Shown here in pieces: positions 6,714-42,439 of a stretch of 64,000 nucleotides of DNA (within the stretch, counting starts at the first letter, position 1; every line of letters starts with the position of its first letter). Source of the DNA: a virus (Duplodnaviria > Caudoviricetes); IMG/VR virus record IMGVR_UViG_3300037067_017690, positions 41,869 through 105,868 of that record; one strand, given 5' to 3'. The position numbers and the translations under genes were made by a program. The notes beneath the pieces are model-generated. The model ran no database searches. It saw only the letters and a list, made by a program, of their open reading frames with translations, and was not told the DNA's origin.

Positions 6714-9155
6714 TTATCCGTTTTTCCAGTCATCGGGATCTTCGGCTAAATCTTCCTCATCTGGATTTTCTAGATCTTCAAGCATTTCTCGAAGATTTTC
6801 CTTTTTAATAATTATAGCGTCTAAAAGATCCGCAGCTTCTTTGGGATAATCAATGCATGCTTCAATTACTTTATGAACTGTATCTGGATCTTCTTGTGAT
6901 AAAAACATTAAGATCTTCGCAACAGGAATTTTTAATTCACGACGAGCATTCATATCTTGAATTGCTTTTGAAAATTTTCTCCACATTTGAGTACCAATTT
7001 GAATCAACCAAGGTTCATGTTTTATATCATCAGCTTTAATCAAAACATTCTTTAAAGTTTTTTCATCAATACCACTTAATCCATGGTGAGTAATCATTTC
7101 GGCAACACCTTTGCAGAGTTCTTGTACAAGAACCGGAAATATGAATGCTTTAGCAATTACTACTGATTGTTCTTCTCCTTCAGAATTTTTTTCGTATTCT
7201 ACTTTAGAAGAACCAGCTGCCATTTGACCGAGACCCATTCCAGAAAAATCAAATGTCCAATACATTCTATATGAACCTACTGAAATTTTATCATAGAGAT
7301 CAACTAATTCAGGGCTAATCTGATTTAATTCTTGCATTAAGAATTTATGAAGAGTAAGCATAGCATTTACAGCAGATCCATGAACTAATGAATTCAAACT
7401 TAATCGTTTATTGACCAATTTTCTGAATCCTGGAGTTTCTTCAATTAATTCTTCGAAATCTTCGTCCGATAAATCTTCTACTGTAGTATTGATATCAACA
7501 TGTTGAGTTAATTGAGCACGAATTCTTTTTTCATCAATACCCCATACTTCGGCAACTGCTCGTACAGCAAGATCTTCAAGTTGTTTTTTATGTTGATGCT
7601 CTTCCATCATAATTCTTTGAAATAATTCCATTAGAACCATATGTCCATCAGGAAGATTGACTTCTTCTTTTCTATTTTTTATATCTTCGTAACCTTCTTG
7701 AGAAAGTTGTTCACCATAAACTGCAAAAATTGGATGTTTACCAAATTCATGAGTTTTATCATTTCTGATATTTTTCCAGAATTTTTTAGTAGATGGAGCA
7801 ACATCTTTATCAAAATTTGCTGATTTATCTATAGAGGCAGTTTTTTCAAGTTGTGAAATATTTTCTTTTAGAAGTTGAATAAAAAATTCTTCTAATCTAA
7901 AAGTTGATGGCACATACTTAATGTTTTTGAACAAATCAGAAATGTCATAATTGATATTAAATATTTCATCGAAAAATTTTATAGCATCAACAATTAATGA
8001 AACTTTTCCGGGAATAATCGTAAATTTATAATGTTTTTCTAAAGATTTTCTGATATCATCTTCTATTTGATATCTTTGAGCTTCAGAAAAAGTTTTTTGT
8101 AAGAATATTTTTAATGTTTTATCATTTTCAATTGCTTTTTCTGGAGTTTTATATTTTTGTTGCCAATCAGCAGAAAAATATGGTTCTATTAATTTGATTA
8201 TTTCATCATTTAATTCATATTTATTTTTTAATGAAGTATCAATTTTTTTCTGGATAGATAAATCAAAAACAAATTTAAAATATAGAAAATCATCACCTTC
8301 AATAAGAATTTTATCCCCAACTAATTTTGTTGAATTATCATATTTTAAAACATCCTTTAATTTTTCATTTAAGATAATTTCAATCATTTTTTCTGGTAAT
8401 TTTGCCAATAATTGTTGCTTATTGATTGATTTATCGTGCACATCCATAAATTGATGGCTACCAAATTCAAATTGGTATTTCTCAGTCCTGCCTTTTTCAT
8501 CTTTTGATTTTCTATTGATAATTATATGAAGTTGTTTGTAATTTGTAAAAGCCCCCTTACCAGTTGTGCACCATTTAGTTCCTCTCCCCCAAAAAGCAGC
8601 AGCATCATAAGATAATGGGAGAATATACATCCAATTAGAATCTTTATATAACACTTTAGTTTGAACGGTTTTTATATATTTTTCAATATCGGTTTCTTCA
8701 ATTTCTTCCTCTTCCTCTTCCTCATCTTCCAAATAATCTTTGAGTGCTAAATACAAATCACCATGAGATTTATATTTCATAATATCAGGATCTATTTTTA
8801 ATTTTTCGATTTTAGTGCGTTTACTAATAAGTTTTTCTACTTCGACTGTAGATATTTTAGGATCACCAATTTTTTTATTTAATCTTTCAAGTAATGATTT
8901 CATATACCTAACTTCATTAAAAGCAATTAGATATTCATTAATTTTATCATGATCATCTAATTGCAATTCATTTTTCTTATAAAGGATTAAAAGCCATTTA
9001 CAATAGTTCCCCATTTTCATAACTTCGTCACCCTTGACGATAGTGGTAGGATCCATTTTCAAAATATTGTAAAATATTTCTTTGTCAATGTCTTTATAGA
9101 ATTTTTCTCGAATTTCTTCTAATCGTGAATTGTGACTTCTTTTTCTTATTGGCAT
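6714..9155 (-). CDS. Large two-part hypothetical phage protein (GTKWC-motif domain plus conserved-looking helical C-terminal domain)
   Basis: 813 aa; AAAFWGRGTKWCTT motif; poly-Glu tract; EKTASIDKSA junction; FPVLVQELCKG...EPW C-terminal domain. Confidence 0.55.
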   Translation of the reverse strand: MPIRKRSHNSRLEEIREKFYKDIDKEIFYNILKMDPTTIVKGDEVMKMGNYCKWLLILYKKNELQLDDHDKINEYLIAFNEVRYMKSLLERLNKKIGDPKISTVEVEKLISKRTKIEKLKIDPDIMKYKSHGDLYLALKDYLEDEEEEEEEIEETDIEKYIKTVQTKVLYKDSNWMYILPLSYDAAAFWGRGTKWCTTGKGAFTNYKQLHIIINRKSKDEKGRTEKYQFEFGSHQFMDVHDKSINKQQLLAKLPEKMIEIILNEKLKDVLKYDNSTKLVGDKILIEGDDFLYFKFVFDLSIQKKIDTSLKNKYELNDEIIKLIEPYFSADWQQKYKTPEKAIENDKTLKIFLQKTFSEAQRYQIEDDIRKSLEKHYKFTIIPGKVSLIVDAIKFFDEIFNINYDISDLFKNIKYVPSTFRLEEFFIQLLKENISQLEKTASIDKSANFDKDVAPSTKKFWKNIRNDKTHEFGKHPIFAVYGEQLSQEGYEDIKNRKEEVNLPDGHMVLMELFQRIMMEEHQHKKQLEDLAVRAVAEVWGIDEKRIRAQLTQHVDINTTVEDLSDEDFEELIEETPGFRKLVNKRLSLNSLVHGSAVNAMLTLHKFLMQELNQISPELVDLYDKISVGSYRMYWTFDFSGMGLGQMAAGSSKVEYEKNSEGEEQSVVIAKAFIFPVLVQELCKGVAEMITHHGLSGIDEKTLKNVLIKADDIKHEPWLIQIGTQMWRKFSKAIQDMNARRELKIPVAKILMFLSQEDPDTVHKVIEACIDYPKEAADLLDAIIIKKENLREMLEDLENPDEEDLAEDPDDWKNG

Positions 9156-9249
9156 AAATTTATATTACCTTATTTTATATTTATTGTAAATATAAAAATT
9201 TTAAATCTAATTCTTAATTGTAATTAATTTTACGGTATTAATTCTTATC

Positions 9250-11811
9250 ATGATAAATACATATATACCCTTACACGTTCATTCAATGACTTCCTTTCTC
9301 GATGGATTTATTGATATTGAGAAATATGTCGCATTTTGTAAAGAACAACAATTTCCTGGTTGTGCAATTACAGATCATGGGAGTATGAGTTCAGTTATTG
9401 AATTCTATCAGCAATGTGAAAAACATAAAATCAATCCAATTATTGGTTGTGAAATGTACATTACACAAAAAGATGATAGAGATGAACCGATCCGAGATAA
9501 TTTTCACATAAATATATTTGCTAAAAATGAACAGGGATACAAAGAATTATGTACTATATTTACAGAATCTAATATTAATCGATATTATTATAGGCCAAGA
9601 ACTCATATTTCTGTTTTAAAAAAATATGCAAAAAATTTAATTTGTTCATCAGCTTGCATGTCCGGAGAAATTCAACAATGTTTATTGAAACATCCAAATG
9701 AAAAAGGATTAGCTATAGCAAAACTTAGAGAATATATGGATGTATTTGGAGATGATTTTTATATTGAACTCGTACTTGCAGATTTAAATGCTCAAAGAGA
9801 TGCAAATAAATTATTGATGGGATTGATAAAAGATTATAATCTAAAATTTATTATTACTACAGATGCTCACTATCTTAGACCTGAAGATGAAATTTGTCAA
9901 GATGTTTTATTAAAAATTCAACGTGAAGGTTTTACATTTTCTTCGAAAACTCATTGGGTAGCAACTTTTGATGAACTTAAAAAATTAGTAAAAGAACAAC
10001 ATCCATATATTAATGATGAATTTTTCAATAAGGCTATAGAATATACTCACGAGATCAATAAAAAAGTACATATTGATTTTTCTGAATGGATAGGTAAAAT
10101 TAATATGCCAGATTTCAAAAATGAATTAAATATGGATAATTTGAAATTCTTTGAAAAATTGACAGCAGAAGGCTTCGATAAATTTCTTGATAAATACGAA
10201 AAGTATGTTGGTCCAATGTCTGAAGAATTGGAAGAACGATACAGAAAACGAGTTAAATATGAATATGAAGTATTAGCAAAATCAGGAAGTTTTTTATATA
10301 TTTTACTTGTAAGAGATATAATTCAAAAAGCCCATAAATTAAAGACGATAATTAAACCCAACCAATTGAAGGTTGGTGATTATTTTTACAAGAATGAAAT
10401 TAAATATGCAGTTATTTCAATTGATTCAGAATTTATAGTGTTGAATTTTTTTAATAATCAAATAGAAAAAATTACATTGGATATTAATGAGAAAATTGAA
10501 TTGAGTAAAGAAATTATGACAGGGATGGGTCGAGGATCAGCCGCTGGTTCTCTGATTTGTTATTTATTAGATATTACTCAAATAGATCCAATTCGCAGAG
10601 ATTTACTTTTTGAACGTTTCGTAAACCCAACTAGATTGTTCGGAGGATTTCAACCAGAATTATCTTGTTTATCTTATGCAATGTATAAATTATATCATTA
10701 TAAAGAAGAACATGATAAATGGAATTTAGAAAATATCTTAAAAAAACATAATATCGAAATTGATGATAGATTAAGAATTGAAATTGATTTTTTTCAAAAA
10801 TATAATGCTGAACCATATATTTGTTATGTAGCTTCAAAAGAAGAATATCGTGAAACAAAAAATATCTTTAATTCTTGGTTATTATATCATTTAGGGATTA
10901 CAGATGAAGAACCTAAAGAAGATTTTAAAGCAAAATATTCTCCTCCAACTTTTCCTGATATAGATGTAGATTTTTCAGATAAAGGAAGAGCAGTTGATAT
11001 GATGGTTGAAAATTATGTGTCAAATAATAATGATCATATCACTAAAAGAAGAGCATATCCGGTTGCGGCTTTCGGACAGTTAAAATGCAAAGGAGCAATT
11101 AAAGATGTAGCAAAAGCTATTGAATCCATTATTATAGATTATTCGAAAACATGGGAAGAACATGAAAAAAATAATAAGAAAAAATATACAGATGAAACTG
11201 AAGATGGATTAAATGTGGCTCGTGATAAATGGGAGAAAGCAAAAGAAAATTATATCAAAGAAGGAATTTTTGATCCTAAAATGTTAAAATATTTATCATT
11301 TGAAAATGTCAATAAAGCGACTAGAGAAATGCCGGCTAATGTTACTTTCGATGATTTAAAAGCTGATAAAAATTTAAAATTATATAAAGAAATCCCTAAA
11401 GTGATGGAAATTGCTGAACGATTGGAATATACTAAAAAATATTTAGGAACTCATGCTTCAGCAGTGTGTATCATTCCTGAATATATGGTTGATTGTGTTC
11501 CGATAGCTAGAACTGGAGATGATTTTATTATAGCTATGAATGATGTTCAAGCATGTGGTGGAGATTATTCTAACAATTTAGGATTGGTTAAAAATGATAT
11601 TCTCGGATTAACTTCATTATTATTTTTACAAGAAGCTCAAGAGATGGCAGCAACTCATTTTGAAGTTATAGCAGAAAGTGGAAAGCGATATTGTTTTGAT
11701 TATAATGCAAAATTCGAATTAATAGATGGGACAATCAAACATATAATAGAATTACAAGAAGGAGATGATATAGTTGGCATCATTTCTGATGATGCCAACT
11801 ATATCAAATAA
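9250..11811 (+). CDS. dnaE: DNA polymerase III alpha, N-terminal part only (PHP + palm/thumb), ending in a Hint/intein-N-like segment
   Basis: LHVHS..SFLDG, AITDHG, IIGCE, TDAHY (PHP); GRGSAAGS, LLFERF, PDIDVDF, GTHASAV, KNDILGL; fingers/HhH/OB domains absent. Confidence 0.93.
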   Translation: MINTYIPLHVHSMTSFLDGFIDIEKYVAFCKEQQFPGCAITDHGSMSSVIEFYQQCEKHKINPIIGCEMYITQKDDRDEPIRDNFHINIFAKNEQGYKELCTIFTESNINRYYYRPRTHISVLKKYAKNLICSSACMSGEIQQCLLKHPNEKGLAIAKLREYMDVFGDDFYIELVLADLNAQRDANKLLMGLIKDYNLKFIITTDAHYLRPEDEICQDVLLKIQREGFTFSSKTHWVATFDELKKLVKEQHPYINDEFFNKAIEYTHEINKKVHIDFSEWIGKINMPDFKNELNMDNLKFFEKLTAEGFDKFLDKYEKYVGPMSEELEERYRKRVKYEYEVLAKSGSFLYILLVRDIIQKAHKLKTIIKPNQLKVGDYFYKNEIKYAVISIDSEFIVLNFFNNQIEKITLDINEKIELSKEIMTGMGRGSAAGSLICYLLDITQIDPIRRDLLFERFVNPTRLFGGFQPELSCLSYAMYKLYHYKEEHDKWNLENILKKHNIEIDDRLRIEIDFFQKYNAEPYICYVASKEEYRETKNIFNSWLLYHLGITDEEPKEDFKAKYSPPTFPDIDVDFSDKGRAVDMMVENYVSNNNDHITKRRAYPVAAFGQLKCKGAIKDVAKAIESIIIDYSKTWEEHEKNNKKKYTDETEDGLNVARDKWEKAKENYIKEGIFDPKMLKYLSFENVNKATREMPANVTFDDLKADKNLKLYKEIPKVMEIAERLEYTKKYLGTHASAVCIIPEYMVDCVPIARTGDDFIIAMNDVQACGGDYSNNLGLVKNDILGLTSLLFLQEAQEMAATHFEVIAESGKRYCFDYNAKFELIDGTIKHIIELQEGDDIVGIISDDANYIK

Positions 11812-11956
11812 GAAGGAAATGACTATGAAGAAGTATTTAAATTCATTTACAGATTTAAGTAAAAAATTTTATGAAGAAAAGGGGATTCCAGAACCCAAAA
11901 TATTCTTTAATTATAAGAAAAAAATTTTATGAAGAAATTTTCAGGAGAAAAACTTA

Positions 11957-12157
11957 ATGATCACAAATAATTTAATACAAGAATTGATTGAAACTTGTAA
12001 AGTTGTAGATGAACAATATAAACAACAATGTGAAAAATGGGATGCTGATATGGGAAGTTCATCTTATAAGGATGGAATCAATATAGAATATTGTATTGAA
12101 GCTGCTGATTGGCATAGAATATCATTAGCACTAAGAAAATTGCAAGGAGTGAAATAA
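11957..12157 (+). CDS. Hypothetical protein
   Basis: 66-aa ORF with AGGAG SD. Confidence 0.55.
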   Translation: MITNNLIQELIETCKVVDEQYKQQCEKWDADMGSSSYKDGINIEYCIEAADWHRISLALRKLQGVK

Positions 12158-12505
12158 ATGTTTTTACTTGAAAAAAAGTTTAATGTTGAAGAAGAAAAAG
12201 GATTTTTCTTTGTTGATGCTTTTGATGTCGAAAACAAACTTGTATATCGATTTAATTATGAAGCTGATGGATTAACAAATCTCATAGAAATTGAAATTGA
12301 ACCATTAACACCATCAGGATTAAGCATTGGAGATTTTATGGTTGTTGATGGTTCTGTGGATAATGTAAGAGAAGAAGTGTTTAAAATAGCTCCAAAAGAA
12401 TTAAAACGATTATACAAAGAACAAGAAGAAAAAATAAAAGAATTAGAAGAAAAAGATATAAAAACTCAACAAGAAGCGGAAAAACAAGATTTATTACTGA
12501 TATAA
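12158..12505 (+). CDS. Hypothetical acidic protein
   Basis: 115-aa ORF abutting upstream stop, AAGGAG SD. Confidence 0.6.
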   Translation: MFLLEKKFNVEEEKGFFFVDAFDVENKLVYRFNYEADGLTNLIEIEIEPLTPSGLSIGDFMVVDGSVDNVREEVFKIAPKELKRLYKEQEEKIKELEEKDIKTQQEAEKQDLLLI

Positions 12506-12712
12506 TGTATTTAATATTTTATAGGTTTTTATAAAATTTACGGACATGAGTAAAAGTAAATGCAAATGGGGAAATGCAATGTGTTCAACTTCCTGTATAG
12601 GATTAATGTTGGTTCAAAGACCTAATGGATCACAATTATTGTGTGACAGACCTATTGATAAACCTATTGTGCTTTCCGAATCTCAGGAGCATATTACTAT
12701 TTTATATAAAAA

Positions 12713-13105
12713 ATGGATAGAGGAACAACGGTGAATCAATTTCTTAATTATGTTAAAATGTGCACAATTGATACAGATATTCAACCATTGTGGAAACCAT
12801 CTATCGGTCATAAATTCATCCAAAAAACTGATGAATCTGAAATTCCGATTATTTTCACAGTGGTAAATTTGATAACTATTAAAGATGCAAAGAAAAATTT
12901 AATTTGGTTGCCATATCAAGAAGACATTCAAAATATGCTTGCTGTTGAAAATTTTAATATGTTATTAGAAGAAATCTTGAATTTTCTTTATAAAGGTCCA
13001 GGAGAGACTAGTCTGCAAATGACTGGAAATGAAGTACTTTTTGCATTCGCAAAATTCAAATTATTTCATAAAAAGTGGTGTCAGGGAAATTGGATTTCAT
13101 TTTAA
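12713..13105 (+). CDS. Hypothetical protein
   Basis: 130-aa ORF, WLPYQEDIQ motif; start uncertain. Confidence 0.5.
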   Translation: MDRGTTVNQFLNYVKMCTIDTDIQPLWKPSIGHKFIQKTDESEIPIIFTVVNLITIKDAKKNLIWLPYQEDIQNMLAVENFNMLLEEILNFLYKGPGETSLQMTGNEVLFAFAKFKLFHKKWCQGNWISF

Positions 13106-13141
13106 ACATCATGTTATTTACGAGGAACAAAAAGTATTCAA

Positions 13142-13987
13142 TCATAAATGAAATTTGTTATCTTGAATTTCTAGATCCTTCTTTTCGGTTTCAGAAAAGA
13201 AATCTAAAATCTTATCAAATGTTAAATCACACAATTCGTCTACCCAATCATAAATGAAATAGAGCTTACGACTTTCTCGAATAACACCGAAAAGAATTGG
13301 ATCTTTTTCTTGTTTTGTTTTATCACGATTTCTATTTTCTGGATCAAAATGTAATATGACATAATTATCAAATATTTTAAGAGCGTCCAATTTCTCCTTG
13401 ACTGCTATAGCTTCTTCTGGGATCACTCGAGTAAAGTTTTTGATCCAATCAAGCCTAAGCCCTTTTTCACATTTTTCACAAATTGTGGCGAGTTGTTCTT
13501 CAGTTATGAATTTCTTAAAATCAATGGCAAATAATTGACTTTCAAATTTGTTTACAAATTCATTATCCTTTAATTTTTCAACGAGAGCAATTTGTCCAAG
13601 TTTTTGAGCATTCTCAATTAATTTTTTGTAAGTGTTTATTCTTGTTTCATAGATTGCGATTTCTTCTTTGCTTTTCAAAACCAATTCAAATGCTTTAGAA
13701 ACTGGCAACGCTGTAATTTGTGTTTTTTTGTGAGAAATCCAATTGAACATTTTTTTAATAAGAGAATTTTTTCGAGATTTATCAATATCTCCTATAGAAA
13801 CACTGTTATTGTTATTATCGCTCATAACAAAATTATTGACACTCCACATTGAGTTTGTGACTGCGGAAGATCCAGTTGCTACGTATGATCCAATATTTCC
13901 AGAAGTGTCCATTTCTTTTTTATGTTTTGGAAGATTGTAATCTACGACAAAATTGTTAAAAATATCCAATGTTTTTTTATCAGCCAT
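13142..13987 (-). CDS. Conserved-looking phage hypothetical protein
   Basis: 281 aa, AGGAG SD; NFTRVIP...FDNYVILHFDP...DPILFG...DWVDELCDLT motifs. Confidence 0.7.
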   Translation of the reverse strand: MADKKTLDIFNNFVVDYNLPKHKKEMDTSGNIGSYVATGSSAVTNSMWSVNNFVMSDNNNNSVSIGDIDKSRKNSLIKKMFNWISHKKTQITALPVSKAFELVLKSKEEIAIYETRINTYKKLIENAQKLGQIALVEKLKDNEFVNKFESQLFAIDFKKFITEEQLATICEKCEKGLRLDWIKNFTRVIPEEAIAVKEKLDALKIFDNYVILHFDPENRNRDKTKQEKDPILFGVIRESRKLYFIYDWVDELCDLTFDKILDFFSETEKKDLEIQDNKFHL

Positions 13988-14172
13988 GGTTTTTCTCCTT
14001 TTTTACTATAGATACCGCATTTACGGTATTCCTTGTAAAAGGAGAAGAAATTTCATGGTCCGAGGAACTATACTATTGATCAAATCACATACTATGGAAA
14101 TTTTGGAGAAATTATCAATAAGCACCATTACGAGATGTATTTTCCGAAAGATCGTGAATTTGTTGTAACTTT

Positions 14173-14324
14173 ATAGGAAGTTTGGTTGAGGAGTGGTTCT
14201 CCTAATAAACTCAAGGTTCTCGCCCTAGAAATAGGAGAGCAAATTTGCCGAGCTGTCATAGCCACTGGGCGTTTAATGATGATGGTTTTATTGCATAAAA
14301 ACCAATGCCAGCCTACTTCCTTAT
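14173..14324 (+). ncRNA. Putative structured non-coding RNA, family not recognised
   Basis: GC-enriched intergenic segment; closing stem AGGAAGU/ACUUCCU plus GGUUG/CAGCC; internal helices GUUCUCCUA/UAGGAGAGC, UGGUUUU/AAAACCA; G-U pairs favour + strand. Confidence 0.6.
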
Positions 14325-14368
14325 TTTAGATTAAAATTTCATCATGAAATTAGTTTAAAATAACTATT

Positions 14369-15190
14369 TCATAAAAAGCTATATAAAATTATATTACTTT
14401 TATATGAAAACAGTCTAAAGAACTCTTTTCGAATTAGAGAGAACCTATATTTCAATTTAGATTCTTTTGACAAGTTGAATAATTCTTTCCAACTCAAAGA
14501 ATTCCAATCTAAGTCTTGCTTCCATAGCTTCTTTAGATTCTCAATATTCTTCTTCACTGGATAAAACCATCCTTTGTCATACTTCTTATAGCCTCTTCGG
14601 GCTATCTCAATCGATGATGCTACTTGGTCTGGTGTGTGATCATCTCCATAGTTCACATTGCCTACAAAACTTGAATATGCTGCATTCACCTCAATTAGTT
14701 CAATACCATTCAATCCACATCTTTTTCTCAAATTATTTACAATTCTTCCTCTATCCCATCTTCCATTTACTAATCTATAATTAAATCCAAATCTTGTCAA
14801 TCTGTCTTTATAAGTAATGTAGACAGTTTGAATTTCTCGATTGATTATTTTTTCTAAAAGATCATTGAATTGAATTCTATTTTCATTCATGCCGGAAGCA
14901 ATATCTTGATAAATCCCATCTACTTTAATTCCATTTTTGATCATGAATTCTTTAAGAATGATTATTTGACGATCTAAATCTGATTTTTGTTTAGTATTAC
15001 TTACTCTAGCATAGAGGACATTGATTTTTTTAATTTTAGAAGATGAGAGTAGACCTGAGACGTCGTATAGAATTTTATGAGAGGTGATTTGAATCCATTT
15101 GATTTTATTAGATTTTTTCTAATTCCAAAGAGTTTGAGAAGTGATTCCAAATAATTTTCTTACTTCTTTAGCTGTTTTAAATTCTTCCAT
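14369..15190 (-). pseudogene. Deleted IS607 element: TnpA (premature TAG) fused in frame to the C-terminus of a TnpB-related protein
   Basis: MEEFKTAKEVRKLFGITSQTLWN*KK...YARVS...DIASG...YKDRLTRFGFN then RLVNGRWDR...IEVNAAYSSFVG...PDQVASSIEIARRG. Confidence 0.85.
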
Positions 15191-15340: not shown

Positions 15341-15997
15341 TTATGGCAAGAGGGATTTTTCTATTTTCTTTTTTTGCCATTGTTTGATTTTTCTTGGTAA
15401 TAATCTTAATTTATTTTGAATAAACATTTTTTCTATTTTATTCAATTTTTCAATAAATAAAATTCCATCCATATGATCAATTTCGTGCAATACTGCTCTG
15501 CAAGCCATACCCTCAAGAATAAAATCTTTTTCAGTTCCATCAATTGTAAGTGATCTAATTTTAGCGGATTTAGGACGAATCACTTGAGCAAATATTCCAG
15601 GAAAACTCAAACATCCTTCTTTAAGTTTGATTTCACCTTCAGTTTCAACAATGACAGGATTCACTAAAGAGAATGCATTATCTTTTTCATCTCTTAAAAC
15701 GCATAATCTTTTAGGAATTCCTACTTGAATAGCTGATAAACCGAGTCCACCTAATGCACCCATATATTGGATCATGTCTTTAGCCAATTGAACTATTTCA
15801 TCTGTGATTTTTTCAATTGGTTCACTTTTTTGTCTTAAAATGGAATTAGGATAAAATAGTAATTCAAGATTTGGTAGTGAAATTTCATTTTTAGAAGGTT
15901 CGTTAGATTGTAGAATTTTAGCTACATCCTGTGTGGGAACTGTTATAGTTGTTGAAGTATCATCAACGATAATAATAGGTTTATTTTCTTCTGTCAT
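15341..15997 (-). CDS. def: Peptide deformylase
   Basis: GLGLSAIQVG, EGCLSFP, HEIDHMDG motifs. Confidence 0.95.
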   Translation of the reverse strand: MTEENKPIIIVDDTSTTITVPTQDVAKILQSNEPSKNEISLPNLELLFYPNSILRQKSEPIEKITDEIVQLAKDMIQYMGALGGLGLSAIQVGIPKRLCVLRDEKDNAFSLVNPVIVETEGEIKLKEGCLSFPGIFAQVIRPKSAKIRSLTIDGTEKDFILEGMACRAVLHEIDHMDGILFIEKLNKIEKMFIQNKLRLLPRKIKQWQKKKIEKSLLP

Positions 15998-16487: not shown

Positions 16488-16835
16488 GTGCAGAACATTT
16501 TACAAGAAATTATATGTGAAACATATGAAAAAGAATTTCGAAGAAATCCTGAAAAAGTTGCGATGTTAATTCCATTTATACTAAAAAACAAAAAACGTAT
16601 AGAACTTTTATTGATATGGGAAGGATATGTAGGAATTTTTGTAAATAATAATGGAAAATGGACTTGTTTAAGTTGTCATGATTCTTGTTGGAGAGAAGAT
16701 GGCGTAAATCGTTTCTTGTCAGAATATATTGATCAATTGTTGCATATAGATTTTACTTGTGGTTGGTATGGAAAGATCAAAATTTCAGAAATTGATGAAA
16801 CATTAAGAAAAATAGAACGTGAACGCAATTCATAA
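16488..16835 (+). CDS. Hypothetical protein
   Basis: 115-aa ORF, GTG start with AAGGA SD. Confidence 0.5.
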   Translation: MQNILQEIICETYEKEFRRNPEKVAMLIPFILKNKKRIELLLIWEGYVGIFVNNNGKWTCLSCHDSCWREDGVNRFLSEYIDQLLHIDFTCGWYGKIKISEIDETLRKIERERNS

Positions 16836-16845
16836 AGGAATAAAA

Positions 16846-17658
16846 ATGACTAAAGATTTATTTGGTGATAGAATGAAAATGTATGAAACTTTAGACCCTA
16901 AAACTAAATTTATGCCTTTATTGCCAATTTGTGTACGATTGGATGGTAAAACTTTTCATTCATGGACAAAAGGATTAAAAACTCCTTATGATGATGATTT
17001 CAGAAATTGCATGGTTGAAACAACAAAATTCTTGGTAGATGAAACTGCTGCCGTAATGGGTTATACACAATCAGATGAAATAAGTTTGATTCTTTATTCT
17101 GATAGTTGCGAAAAACAAGTATATTTTGAAGGAAAAGTTAAGAAAATAATCAGTGTAATTTCAAGTCTTTGCACGGCTAAATTTAATGAAATTTCTAAAA
17201 AAGTATTTCCGAATAAGCCTTTAGCATTTTTTGATTGTAGAGCTTGGCAAGTTCCGAATCTTATTGAGACTGTCAATGTATTATTGTGGAGAGAATTAGA
17301 TGCTACAAAAAATAGTGTAACTATGGCGGCATCTTGTTATTATTCACACAAGGAATTAATGAACCAAGGGAATGCGGATAAACTAGAAATGTTGCATAAA
17401 AAAGGTGTGAATTGGAATGATTATCCTACGTATTTTAAAAGAGGTGCATACGTAGCCAGAAGAAAAATTCTTAGGGAATTATCTGAAGAAGAAAGGATGA
17501 AAATTCCTGAACAACATAGACCAGCTAAAGATTTAAAGGTTTCAAGAACTACTGTTATGGTATTAGAACTTCCTCCTTTACTAAAAATTAAAAACAGAGT
17601 AGAAGTAATTTTCAATGGGGGTCCAATTATTTTGGAAAGTGAATCACAAATGATTTGA
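16846..17658 (+). CDS. thg1: tRNA-His guanylyltransferase / Thg1-like 3'-5' polymerase
   Basis: RLDGKTFH, YTQSDEISL, FDCR, WRELDATKNS, GVNWND motifs; start set at ATG 16846 (AAGGA SD). Confidence 0.92.
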   Translation: MTKDLFGDRMKMYETLDPKTKFMPLLPICVRLDGKTFHSWTKGLKTPYDDDFRNCMVETTKFLVDETAAVMGYTQSDEISLILYSDSCEKQVYFEGKVKKIISVISSLCTAKFNEISKKVFPNKPLAFFDCRAWQVPNLIETVNVLLWRELDATKNSVTMAASCYYSHKELMNQGNADKLEMLHKKGVNWNDYPTYFKRGAYVARRKILRELSEEERMKIPEQHRPAKDLKVSRTTVMVLELPPLLKIKNRVEVIFNGGPIILESESQMI

Positions 17659-17685: not shown

Positions 17686-18939
17686 TCATATACAAATCAA
17701 TTTCGAATTTTGATTCATATACATTTCAAGAAAATTGGTCAGAATTTCTGACCAATTTTCTACTTGGGTAAACCATTTACCCATAATTCTTTTAGCAATA
17801 TTTATTGCTGAATTTAAATCTCTGTCAATTTCTATAAATTTATTCAATCTTACTCTTCTTATACTCAAATCAGAATTAAATTCTCTCTTTCCTGTTAAAC
17901 AATTCTCTTGTGAAGTGTAAGCTTCATTTACTTTATAAAAATCTAATCCTAGATTCTTAGCTTTATATTCTAAAAATCCTTTAAATCTACTCAATGTTCC
18001 TCTGTTCTGAGTTGATTTATTCTTACCTCTCTCTTGTGGGCTCCTTCCTCTTGTTACTAATTTCTTTGTTTTAATATCACCAACTATTAAACATCCAATA
18101 TTATTTCCCGTACAAATATCAATTATTTCTCTAGATGCTTTGTGTTGAAAATCCTTGTTCTTATTAGTTATTTTTCTTGAAATCTTATTAAATCTATTCT
18201 TTATCTTCTTCCAATTATTACTAAATTTCTTTTTGATGTCTATTTTCGATTGAAGAAGACCTTTTCTTTTTTCTAATTTTTTAAATTGATTATTTTTGAT
18301 TGAGAAACATTTACCAACATTTGAGAAACATTTACCAACATTTGAGAAACAAGTAGCTATTTGAGAACACCCTAAATCAATTGAAAGAAAATTATCTTTT
18401 GATAAGATTAGATTTGATGGTTGTTCAGAATACACAAAGATAATAAAATATTTATCATCTTCTTTTTTAAAAGTAATAGTTTTTATAGTGGAATCATTAA
18501 TCTCATATTTAGAAAATATTTCTGGAAGATCAATAATTAATTTATTTTTAATGGAATTTAGATTGAGTTCTAATTGATTATTATTTATTTTGAACCCACC
18601 ATTTCCTTGATTGAAATCTAACATAAATGAAGTGAAATATTTCCAACTTTTGAATTTATGAGGAAATTTAGCAGTAGAATTTTTCTTTTTGTTTAGAGCA
18701 AAGAATGATTTGATATTATTAATGAGAGTTCTGCAAGTATTTTGAGCAGATTTAGAATTGATCGTAAGATTGTTTAAATTTCTATAATTTTTATAAAATT
18801 GATTTAAATCTTTAGATTGCAATCCTTTACGAGCTTGTTCTAATAATTGATTATAAAGAATTCTATGTTCATTACTAAGAGTATTTATTTTGATCTCTTG
18901 TAAATAATTTGGGAATATTCTAATTTTTAATGATTTCAT
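17686..18939 (-). CDS. tnpB: TnpB RNA-guided endonuclease (IS607-associated, rearranged RuvC-II)
   Basis: MKSLKIRIFP start, SIDLG, KDFQHKAS, LIVGD, VNEAYTSQ, IDRDLNSAINI. Confidence 0.9.
   Translation of the reverse strand: MKSLKIRIFPNYLQEIKINTLSNEHRILYNQLLEQARKGLQSKDLNQFYKNYRNLNNLTINSKSAQNTCRTLINNIKSFFALNKKKNSTAKFPHKFKSWKYFTSFMLDFNQGNGGFKINNNQLELNLNSIKNKLIIDLPEIFSKYEINDSTIKTITFKKEDDKYFIIFVYSEQPSNLILSKDNFLSIDLGCSQIATCFSNVGKCFSNVGKCFSIKNNQFKKLEKRKGLLQSKIDIKKKFSNNWKKIKNRFNKISRKITNKNKDFQHKASREIIDICTGNNIGCLIVGDIKTKKLVTRGRSPQERGKNKSTQNRGTLSRFKGFLEYKAKNLGLDFYKVNEAYTSQENCLTGKREFNSDLSIRRVRLNKFIEIDRDLNSAINIAKRIMGKWFTQVENWSEILTNFLEMYMNQNSKLICI
18301..18351. repeat. 21-bp tandem duplication inside tnpB (CFSNVGK x2)
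   Basis: TGAGAAACATTTACCAACATT x2 followed by TGAGAAACA. Confidence 0.9.
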
Positions 18940-19543
18940 CTTTAATTTCTCGAAGATTATCTTCTGTTTTTTTAATCTTGTTTTTATAAGATCTTTTTCC
19001 ATATAATTTCATTGAAAAATAATGAACAATTGAAATAAGATCTTCAGCAAATTCTTGTTGTTCTGTTTTATTTTCACTTTTATCTAAAATGATTATTTCA
19101 GAATTATTTTCTCTTGCCAATTTTTCAAAAAATTCAAATCCAAATCTTACTAACCGATCTTTATAGAAGATAATCAATTTTTCTATAGAATTTGTAAGAA
19201 AATATTTAATTAATTTTTGAAGACCTTGTCTGTTATAATTTAATGCAGAACCAAATTCAGAAATGACTTCATCAATTTGAATCCCATTTTTGAAACAAAA
19301 TTCTTTGATTTTAGATTCTTGACCAATTAAACCAGATTTTTGTTGTTTAGTAGATTCTCTGCAATAAATCACATTTAATCTTTTTGAAGTTTTGATTCCT
19401 TTGATTTTGAGTAAATGTTCATCTGTATATCTTCTATGTTTAGAATTTAATTTTATAGGAACTAATTTTTGATTTTTATCCCAATTCCTAAGAGTTTGTT
19501 TAGTAACATTTATTAATTTAGAGAATTCATTTATTGTATACAT
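18920..19543 (-). CDS. tnpA: IS607 transposase (MerR-like HTH + serine recombinase)
   Basis: VTKQTLRNWD...HRRY HTH; YCRES catalytic Ser; YKDRLVRFGF; EDLISIVHYFSMKLYG. Confidence 0.93.
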   Translation of the reverse strand: MYTINEFSKLINVTKQTLRNWDKNQKLVPIKLNSKHRRYTDEHLLKIKGIKTSKRLNVIYCRESTKQQKSGLIGQESKIKEFCFKNGIQIDEVISEFGSALNYNRQGLQKLIKYFLTNSIEKLIIFYKDRLVRFGFEFFEKLARENNSEIIILDKSENKTEQQEFAEDLISIVHYFSMKLYGKRSYKNKIKKTEDNLREIKDEIIKN

Positions 19544-41402: not shown

Positions 41403-42439
41403 TTTTTTAAAACTTCAATATTTACATTCATATTCTTTTTATCATTTTCGAACCAATATAATACGTATGCATCCTGATATTCTAATGGAAACTTTTTCCA
41501 TTCAGAAAATTCTTTTTTACATTCATATATAAACATTGGATTTTTAGTATATTCAATCAATGATTTTGATTTAAGGGTTAAATCGGTAACACACTTCTTG
41601 CAAAAATCATTGTACATTTTTGAATAATAAGAATTATTCGCTATCGCTGGTTCACCTTCTGGGAATCTTCCTTTGATGACATCTTTAGCATAATAATAAG
41701 CCTCTCTAGAATCTTTAGCAATTTCTGGTTCTATTAACGAGAATCTTCCTTTAATAACATCTTGAGCATAATAATAAGCATTATAAGGCTCTTTTGCTAT
41801 CGCTGGTTCACCTTCTGGGAATCTTCCTTTAATAACATCTTTAGCATAAATATATGCATAATAAGGATCCCTAGCTATCGCAGGTTCACCTTCTGGGAAT
41901 CTTCCTTTAATAACATCTCTAGCATACCAATATGCATATTTAAGATCTTTAGCTATAGCAGGTTCTCCTAATGGGAATCTTCCTTTGATTATATTCAGAG
42001 CATAATTATATGCTAATTTAGCATCTTTAGCTATTACAGGTTCTCCTAATTCAAATCTTCCTTTAATAACATTTAGAGCATACTCATATGCCCATTTAGG
42101 ATCCTTAGCTATTTCAAGTTCTAATTCTTTTAATTTTCCTGATAATTCTGGTTTTCTCTGGATTATTGATCTAAGAATTCTAGCTTCATTCAATATATCT
42201 CTTTCTTCTTGTTCAAATTCTATTTCAAATTGGTATTTTTGAATTGGAAGCAATTGAATTAATTCTCTTATAGTAAGATTAGATTGATCTTGGTAATTAT
42301 ATAATCCTCTTTTTCCAGTTGCAGCAAATTCTTGATTGTCTTCTCCTGTCATTTCAATCTTACTCATTACTGGGAGTGTTAACAAATATTCTAAGGGATG
42401 GTATTCGGAAGCATATTTAATTTGTTGAGAAAGGGTCAT
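41366..42439 (-). CDS. Helical tandem-repeat protein (25-aa repeat IAKDxxxAYxYAxDVIKGRFPEGEP, ~7 copies)
   Basis: Repeats visible in protein and as 75-bp DNA repeats ~41640-42115. Confidence 0.85.
   Translation of the reverse strand: MTLSQQIKYASEYHPLEYLLTLPVMSKIEMTGEDNQEFAATGKRGLYNYQDQSNLTIRELIQLLPIQKYQFEIEFEQEERDILNEARILRSIIQRKPELSGKLKELELEIAKDPKWAYEYALNVIKGRFELGEPVIAKDAKLAYNYALNIIKGRFPLGEPAIAKDLKYAYWYARDVIKGRFPEGEPAIARDPYYAYIYAKDVIKGRFPEGEPAIAKEPYNAYYYAQDVIKGRFSLIEPEIAKDSREAYYYAKDVIKGRFPEGEPAIANNSYYSKMYNDFCKKCVTDLTLKSKSLIEYTKNPMFIYECKKEFSEWKKFPLEYQDAYVLYWFENDKKNMNVNIEVLKKWKKAKELIYSL

Follow-up and report, generated by a model that had tools for sequence, protein, structure and literature searches.

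Why does the only gene for a DNA polymerase III alpha subunit (Pol III alpha, DnaE) in the phage record IMGVR_UViG_3300037067_017690 stop shortly after the third of its catalytic aspartate motifs, and what is the short peptide with which it ends? The window analysed here, 64,000 bp in length, is the 3' 64 kb of this 105,868-bp IMG/VR virus record (positions 41,869 to 105,868 of the record, which has 29% G+C and is classed as linear). The completeness of the record was estimated by CheckV at 42%. All positions given below refer to the window. The answer that we favour, and to which we give about an even chance, is that the gene, termed dnaE-N here, encodes one part of a two-piece polymerase and that the terminal peptide represents a conserved docking tail derived from an intein.

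The first-pass annotation of the window had described a DnaE which ends soon after the motif KNDILGL in a tail of 39 amino acids (aa) starting with a cysteine at 11692, and this description proved correct to the base. The tail CFDYNAKF...ANYIK (in full CFDYNAKFELIDGTIKHIIELQEGDDIVGIISDDANYIK) is encoded by 11692-11808 with TGT as the Cys codon (11692-11694), and it is followed by a TAA stop at 11809-11811. The open reading frame (ORF) is intact and contains all catalytic motifs (GRGSAAGS, PDIDVDF and KNDILGL), the three catalytic aspartates included. Pfam recognised only the PHP domain and DNA_pol3_alpha in the predicted protein (E 5.6e-39 for the latter, the sole match of this family within the record), while no fingers, HHH_6 or OB domain was detected. 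A DnaE profile based on 45 full-length DnaE proteins aligns to the protein from KNDILGL to 'THFEV' and no further. The distance between the third-Asp motif and GVFQLES is a constant 42-43 aa in one-piece DnaE proteins; here, the ORF ends 27 residues past the third-Asp motif plus the tail of 39 aa, the break point being the loop after the first finger helix. Since the profile alignment ends at 'THFEV', the tail was rejected as a candidate for the native IPLDD...GVFQLES segment.

The missing C-terminal half was not detected in the record. The first-pass annotation had found none in the window, and this holds for the entire 105,868 bp in profile searches for the fingers (PF17657) and HHH_6 (PF14579) domains. 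A custom hidden Markov model (HMM) of the DnaE C-terminal half, derived from 45 full-length homologues and applied with filters off to every ORF of at least 40 aa in the record, also revealed no C half in either the 51 kb upstream or the 52 kb downstream. Furthermore, no C-terminal intein fragment (IntC) or other Hint piece was identified in the 105.9 kb using the families Intein_splicing, PT-HINT and Hint as well as the regular expression H[ND][CST]. The partner ORF which had been proposed to combine an IntC with the remaining DnaE domains therefore does not occur in the record, which represents approximately 42% of a genome of roughly 250 kb. Scans of IMG/VR with the DnaE-N protein, two alignments, the helicase, the connector, TnpB and a DNA pattern of the IS607 ends returned only an unrelated split DnaE (L001, see below), and two scans of JGI metagenomes for the partner half were negative. 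The GTDB genomes contained only cellular DnaE proteins sharing 25-34% identity, and cultured phages provided matches to DnaE-N of at most 30% identity across most of the protein and no partner. The 115-aa ORF downstream, used as a synteny fingerprint, turned out to be an orphan in the protein database. The most likely reading is that the partner half, presumably comprising the fingers, HhH and OB domains, is encoded in the missing ~58% of the genome. Because neither a family A nor a family B polymerase was found in searches of the record, this DnaE is probably the working replicase of the phage.

Among 5.8 billion clustered proteins only two close lineages were detected, P0002 (977 aa, on a Logan contig of 8,998 bp) and P0003 (941 aa, JGI); the other matches were one-piece cellular DnaE proteins of at most 34% identity. 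When the last 94 aa were compared with 1.84 billion representatives by phmmer without filters, only one further relative was obtained, P0123 (271 aa), and a profile search with the three tails of this phage, P0002 and P0123 retrieved no tail-bearing protein beyond these known members. For both P0003 and P0123 the JGI contig is listed with a length of 12,269 bp, and the two therefore probably stem from the same contig, with P0123 being the C-terminal piece of the same gene. The proteins P0002 and P0123 both terminate at most 1-2 residues away from the end position in this phage. The aligned tails read ATHFEVIAESGKRYCFDYNAKFELIDGTIKHIIELQEGDDIVGII... in this phage, ATKIEIIMEDGRKLFVDYDTEVELEDGKIIKAYELKKEDNIKNIY in P0002 and ATKVEIEFEN-KKIFLDYETEVGLRNGDVVIAGNLKAGDDIVNIYG in P0123, with 12 of the 45 columns being invariant, and the column corresponding to intein residue 1 (see below) is occupied by C, F and F, respectively. 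P0002 and P0123 share 64% identity in the body of the protein and 52% in the tail, whereas each of them shares 56-59% and 36-40%, respectively, with this phage, which branches outside the two Phe-bearing relatives. As the tails have remained 36-52% identical with 12 invariant columns, the comparison points to selection for a property other than splicing.

Three independent profile comparisons indicate that the tail is very probably of intein ancestry. The first-pass annotation had noted its likeness to the N-terminal part of the Hint fold, and the scan with Hint profiles bears this out. Pfam Hint (PF01079) matches the tail of this phage at profile positions 9-41 with an E-value of 0.006-0.01, which is below the curated cut-off, and no other Hint match occurs when the record is translated in all six frames. 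When the profile of the three tails was compared with all PDB sequences, the CDC21-1 mini-inteins ranked first (6RPQ, E 0.0011; 6RPP, E 0.0077) and a VMA intein fifth. In this alignment the C/F column falls on the alanine that replaces Cys1 in both CDC21-1 constructs, which carry a C1A mutation and three N-extein residues (PMC6801210). A control profile of the palm insert of the same proteins gave no intein match in the PDB.

We also scored the tails against an HMM of intein N-termini, built from residues 1-34 of 15 inteins (13 from loci of bacterial metagenome-assembled genomes and those of P0002 and P0003), together with 2000 shuffles per tail. The P0002 tail reached 21.7 bits (E 9e-9 for a single target), a score attained by none of its shuffles, and the tail of this phage 7.5 bits, attained by 4 of the 2000. 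In both of these usable alignments, position 1 of the HMM lies on the C/F column. Pfam Hint, the family profile and the intein-N HMM hence agree in placing intein residue 1 on this column, that is on the Cys of this phage. The first-pass suggestion that the upstream FEVIAESGKRY forms a second Hint pseudo-repeat is not borne out, since the DnaE profile still aligns to 'THFEV' and the C/F column is where all Hint alignments begin.

Phenylalanine is unable to perform the N-S acyl shift. Because residue 1 is C, F and F in the three members and the tail has nonetheless been kept, the function common to the family is probably not class-1 splicing. The first-pass annotation had considered an atypically split intein at an unusual site. 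The non-cyanobacterial split site, the homology to an intein block and the matching fragment length stand, but the nucleophile is not maintained across the family. Its alternative of a non-splicing docking module is now to be preferred. We propose that Pol III alpha is made as at least two proteins in this phage and that dnaE-N provides the half with the PHP domain and the palm. An ancestral intein would have resided in the surface loop that connects the first finger helix to the 'IPLDD' segment, and only its first ~31 residues (Hint block A) would remain. This fragment may have been kept mainly as a β-strand docking piece which pairs with a complementary remnant of the Hint fold carried by the fingers/HhH/OB half, the product of a separate gene, and the resulting enzyme would be a non-covalent complex.

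A number of observations weigh against a docking tail. The partner half, to which the tail is supposed to bind, was not seen in any of the scans, and the family comprises three proteins only. This phage keeps a Cys at residue 1, where it is preceded by a Tyr, so that splicing may still take place here. The intein signal of its own tail is weak, as regards both the score against the intein-N HMM and the sub-threshold Pfam match, and the P0123 tail scored only 1.0 bit, which was reached by 435 of 2000 shuffles and is not significant. Short β-rich peptides furthermore make noisy queries, as seen from the spurious similarities to RCC1 and ubiquitin described below. The AlphaFold2 model of the last 271 aa, calculated from an alignment of three sequences, was uninformative, with a predicted local distance difference test (pLDDT) score of 46 overall and below 40 in the tail.

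The Cys of this phage raises the question whether its own tail still splices. If so, the 31-39 aa would constitute the N-terminal fragment (IntN) of an active, atypically split intein, the partner would carry an IntC of at least ~100 aa in fusion with the DnaE fingers, and Cys815 would start trans-splicing to yield a mature polymerase of one chain. All three registers place the Cys precisely on intein residue 1, and the length of the fragment equals that of the atypical IntN of phage terminase (TerL) inteins (25-37 aa, with an IntC of 104-115 aa; PMC11766414). The lineage is prone to inteins, with an intact one at GRG|S in the relatives. Moreover, as this phage branches outside the Phe-bearing pair, its Cys may be a retained ancestral functional state. 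However, Cys1 is not conserved in the family, and the tail of this phage is the one most diverged from the intein consensus, with N-A instead of D-T at positions 5-6 and 7.5 as compared with 21.7 bits. The block B motif TxxH is absent from the 39 aa; in an atypical split it would be located on the partner. Neither an IntC nor any other Hint fragment occurs in the 105.9 kb, and in other phages the split in this loop occurs without an intein. Overall, splicing in this phage alone seems rather unlikely. For the Phe-bearing relatives, a class 2 or class 3 splicing mechanism would be formally conceivable. It is likewise a tentative idea, which we rather doubt, that both states exist side by side, namely an atypically split intein that still works in this phage (Cys1) and a non-covalent clasp no longer able to splice in the relatives (Phe1), so that the family would capture an intein in the course of turning into a docking tag.

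Alternatively, the tail may be an inert leftover of a decaying intein, in which case the two halves would join through the native palm-fingers interface, or the tail would bind another protein of the replisome. In line with such decay, the tail evolves faster than the body (36-52% as opposed to 56-64% identity), its end appears to have been remodelled by an inverted duplication forming a hairpin, and the split DnaE of the L001 type needs no tail. Still, an unconstrained tail of 31 aa would be expected to be lost or randomised at a divergence of 40-45%, whereas the three lineages have kept a common end point and 12 invariant columns out of 45. An inert relic is consequently considered quite unlikely.

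No perfect hairpin in the 105.9-kb record is longer than the one at the gene end, which is not followed by a T-run on the + strand. Its first arm codes for the conserved DDIVGI and its second arm for the extra SDDANYIK. Of the tail that had been annotated as resembling an IntN in its full length, the 31 residues shared with the relatives thus retain this assignment. The remaining eight, which the relatives lack and which the second arm of the inverted repeat encodes, are probably a by-product of an inverted duplication or of an element acting at the RNA level and not part of the Hint fragment. The hairpin itself could be an RNA processing or stability element or a scar of an inverted duplication.

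It appears very improbable that the tail resembles inteins by chance and adopts a different fold without intein ancestry, such as a single RCC1-like blade or another small β module. In the phmmer search with the last 94 aa, 35 RCC1-repeat proteins matched IAESGKRYCFDYNAKFELIDGT, and PDB searches with single sequences were noisy. However, the RCC1 scores arise from adding up 3-9 weak repeats, and the family profile matches inteins at residue 1 in the PDB and not RCC1, so that the RCC1 similarity was rejected. The P0002 tail moreover matches the independent intein-N HMM with an E-value of 9e-9. A similarity of the P0002 tail to polyubiquitin in a single-sequence search was also discarded as a repeat-summed artefact not shared by the family profile. 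In the stretch 11656-11740 (HFEVIAESGKRYCFDYNAKFELIDGT), ~48% of the residues are identical to those of single RCC1 repeats (HS.AITESGKLY.WGYN..GQLGDGT), but the WG and the GQLG glycines are lacking; because the tails of the relatives have no RCC1-like motif, this likeness was judged to be convergent.

Finally, a truncated pseudogene or an assembly artefact, and with it a broken polymerase gene, is highly unlikely even in a fragmentary record (CheckV 42%) with mobile-element remnants 1.3-8 kb downstream, given the intact ORF with all catalytic motifs, the same end point in two independent assemblies (Logan and JGI) and the lack of any other polymerase in the record.

The features of dnaE-N are compiled in the following table.

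Table. Features of the dnaE-N gene and of its product in window coordinates.
Feature	Position	Strand	Remarks
dnaE-N gene	9250..11811	+	853 aa; PHP and palm half of Pol III alpha plus tail very probably derived from an intein
PHP domain, residues 8-174	9271..9771	+	Pfam PF02811, E 3.5e-43
Palm insert of ~60 aa, lineage-specific, directly before GRGSAAGS	10336..10521	+	common to all three relatives
GRGSAAGS motif, without intein in this phage	10528..10551	+	comparison with the sequences of the relatives
PDIDVDF, catalytic Asp motif	10954..10974	+	direct sequence reading
KNDILGL, third catalytic Asp motif	11590..11610	+	aligns to position 1 of the DnaE C-side profile
Final native DnaE helix TSLLFLQEAQEMAAT and 12-residue lineage-specific linker HFEVIAESGKRY; end of the N-extein	11611..11691	+	DnaE profile, spacing
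Intein block-A-like fragment, residues 1-31, CFDYNAKFELIDGTIKHIIELQEGDDIVGII; Cys815 aligned with intein residue 1	11692..11784	+	Hint, family profile, intein-N HMM
Extension SDDANYIK of 8 aa, not in relatives	11785..11808	+	tail alignment; coded by the 3' hairpin arm
Perfect 18-bp inverted repeat with 5-nt loop	11766..11806	.	overlaps the final 14 codons

Further differences between this phage and its relatives concern the palm. P0002 and P0003 contain an intact intein between GRG and SAAGS, which was recognised by Pfam as PT-HINT and Intein_splicing (P0002 residues 437-559); the insertion is a mini-intein in P0002 and a larger insertion from residue ~437 in P0003. The adjacent palm insert is β-rich (LKVGDYF...KYAVISID), and its profile had no significant match in the PDB. 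Judged by eye against the conserved DnaE motifs, it seems to be absent from cellular DnaE. In the P0003/P0123 lineage the gene calls divide DnaE-N into two ORFs, between which the residues PPTFPDID surrounding the catalytic Asp pair are missing; this is suggestive of an intron, of a frameshift or of an additional break at the active site.

Downstream of dnaE-N follow four small ORFs without family match and then transposase remnants, a deformylase gene and a Thg1-like gene, with neither a C half nor an endonuclease gene adjoining. The mobile-element debris covers 13142-14944 (-) and 17686-19543 (-). It includes a transposase-like ORF of 281 aa, a 191-aa fusion of a serine-recombinase N-terminus to a TnpB-like C-terminus and an intact TnpA/TnpB pair of the IS607 type, the ends of which are found again in a small element immediately upstream of the window. 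The gene at 15341-15997 (-) is predicted to encode a peptide deformylase (Pfam E 6.6e-41), and the one at 16819-17658 (+) a Thg1-like tRNA-His guanylyltransferase (E 7e-30). Dispersed regulatory motifs of at least 14 nt were searched for as well and none was found.

If the tail indeed serves docking only, a selfish splicing element would have decayed into a connector that holds a two-piece replicative polymerase together. A search of the literature for such a route from intein to connector retrieved no description of it. If, on the other hand, the tail is active in this phage and dead in the relatives, it would be the first natural split intein with a short IntN outside the terminases, accompanied by its own dead variants. 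Split inteins of this kind are wanted as tools for protein labelling, and one borne by DnaE would offer a new scaffold. To our knowledge, natural split inteins with a short IntN are rare, and the TerL pair is the only one characterised. Under either reading, the loop between palm and fingers of Pol III alpha would emerge as a recurrent and tolerated break point in phage polymerases.

Among the known systems, the AceL-TerL and GOS-TerL inteins resemble the tail in their phage origin and in a very short N fragment that covers Hint block A only, the remainder of the fold being expected on the partner. The 31 conserved residues, or 39 with the extension, fit the IntN of ~25-37 aa of these atypically split inteins (PMC11766414). 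They differ from the present case in the host protein, which is DnaE here, and in residue 1, which is Phe in two of the three members; no sequence relation to them was detected.

As in the cyanobacterial Ssp and Npu DnaE and in the 'fractured gene' DnaE proteins, the polymerase appears to be encoded by two genes with intein parts at the broken ends, and the two cyanobacterial DnaE halves can lie far apart, as presumed here. The break, however, is found in the loop right after the third-Asp motif and the first finger helix, unlike in cyanobacteria, where the DnaE split site lies further into the fingers. The IntN parts of the cyanobacterial inteins and of the fractured-gene split inteins DnaE-1, -2 and -3 (Dassa et al. 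2009, PMC2677866) comprise 88-105 aa and include TxxH. In comparison with these, the tail has only 31 aa without TxxH, and no homing endonuclease or C half adjoins it.

The minimal Pol III alpha of jumbo phages belonging to group 2.2 has also been described as split at the border of palm and fingers (Iyer et al. 2021, PMC7824862). Like the L001 polymerase it is similar to the DnaE of this phage in the site of the split and in the presumed non-covalent complex. In L001 (IMG/VR, 8672-13650), an unrelated phage whose N half shares 29% identity with DnaE-N, the break lies in the same loop. The gene order is a 657-aa N half, a UDG-like gene, an exonuclease gene and a 566-aa C half, the latter located 1.3 kb downstream. 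Unlike DnaE-N, the N half of L001 stops 22 aa past the Asp motif and lacks a Hint-like tail. The L001 C half starts with a Cys-rich extension of 40 aa.

The best match of the tail family among solved structures are the CDC21-1 mini-inteins of Pyrococcus (6RPP, 6RPQ). These are complete, cis-splicing inteins of 164-168 aa in an archaeal MCM protein, of which ~20-30 residues align to the tails. Within this segment the CDC21-1 motif (C)VDY[DE]TEV.L.[DN]G is nearly equal to the F[VL]DY[DE]TEV.L.[DN]G of the two Phe-bearing relatives.

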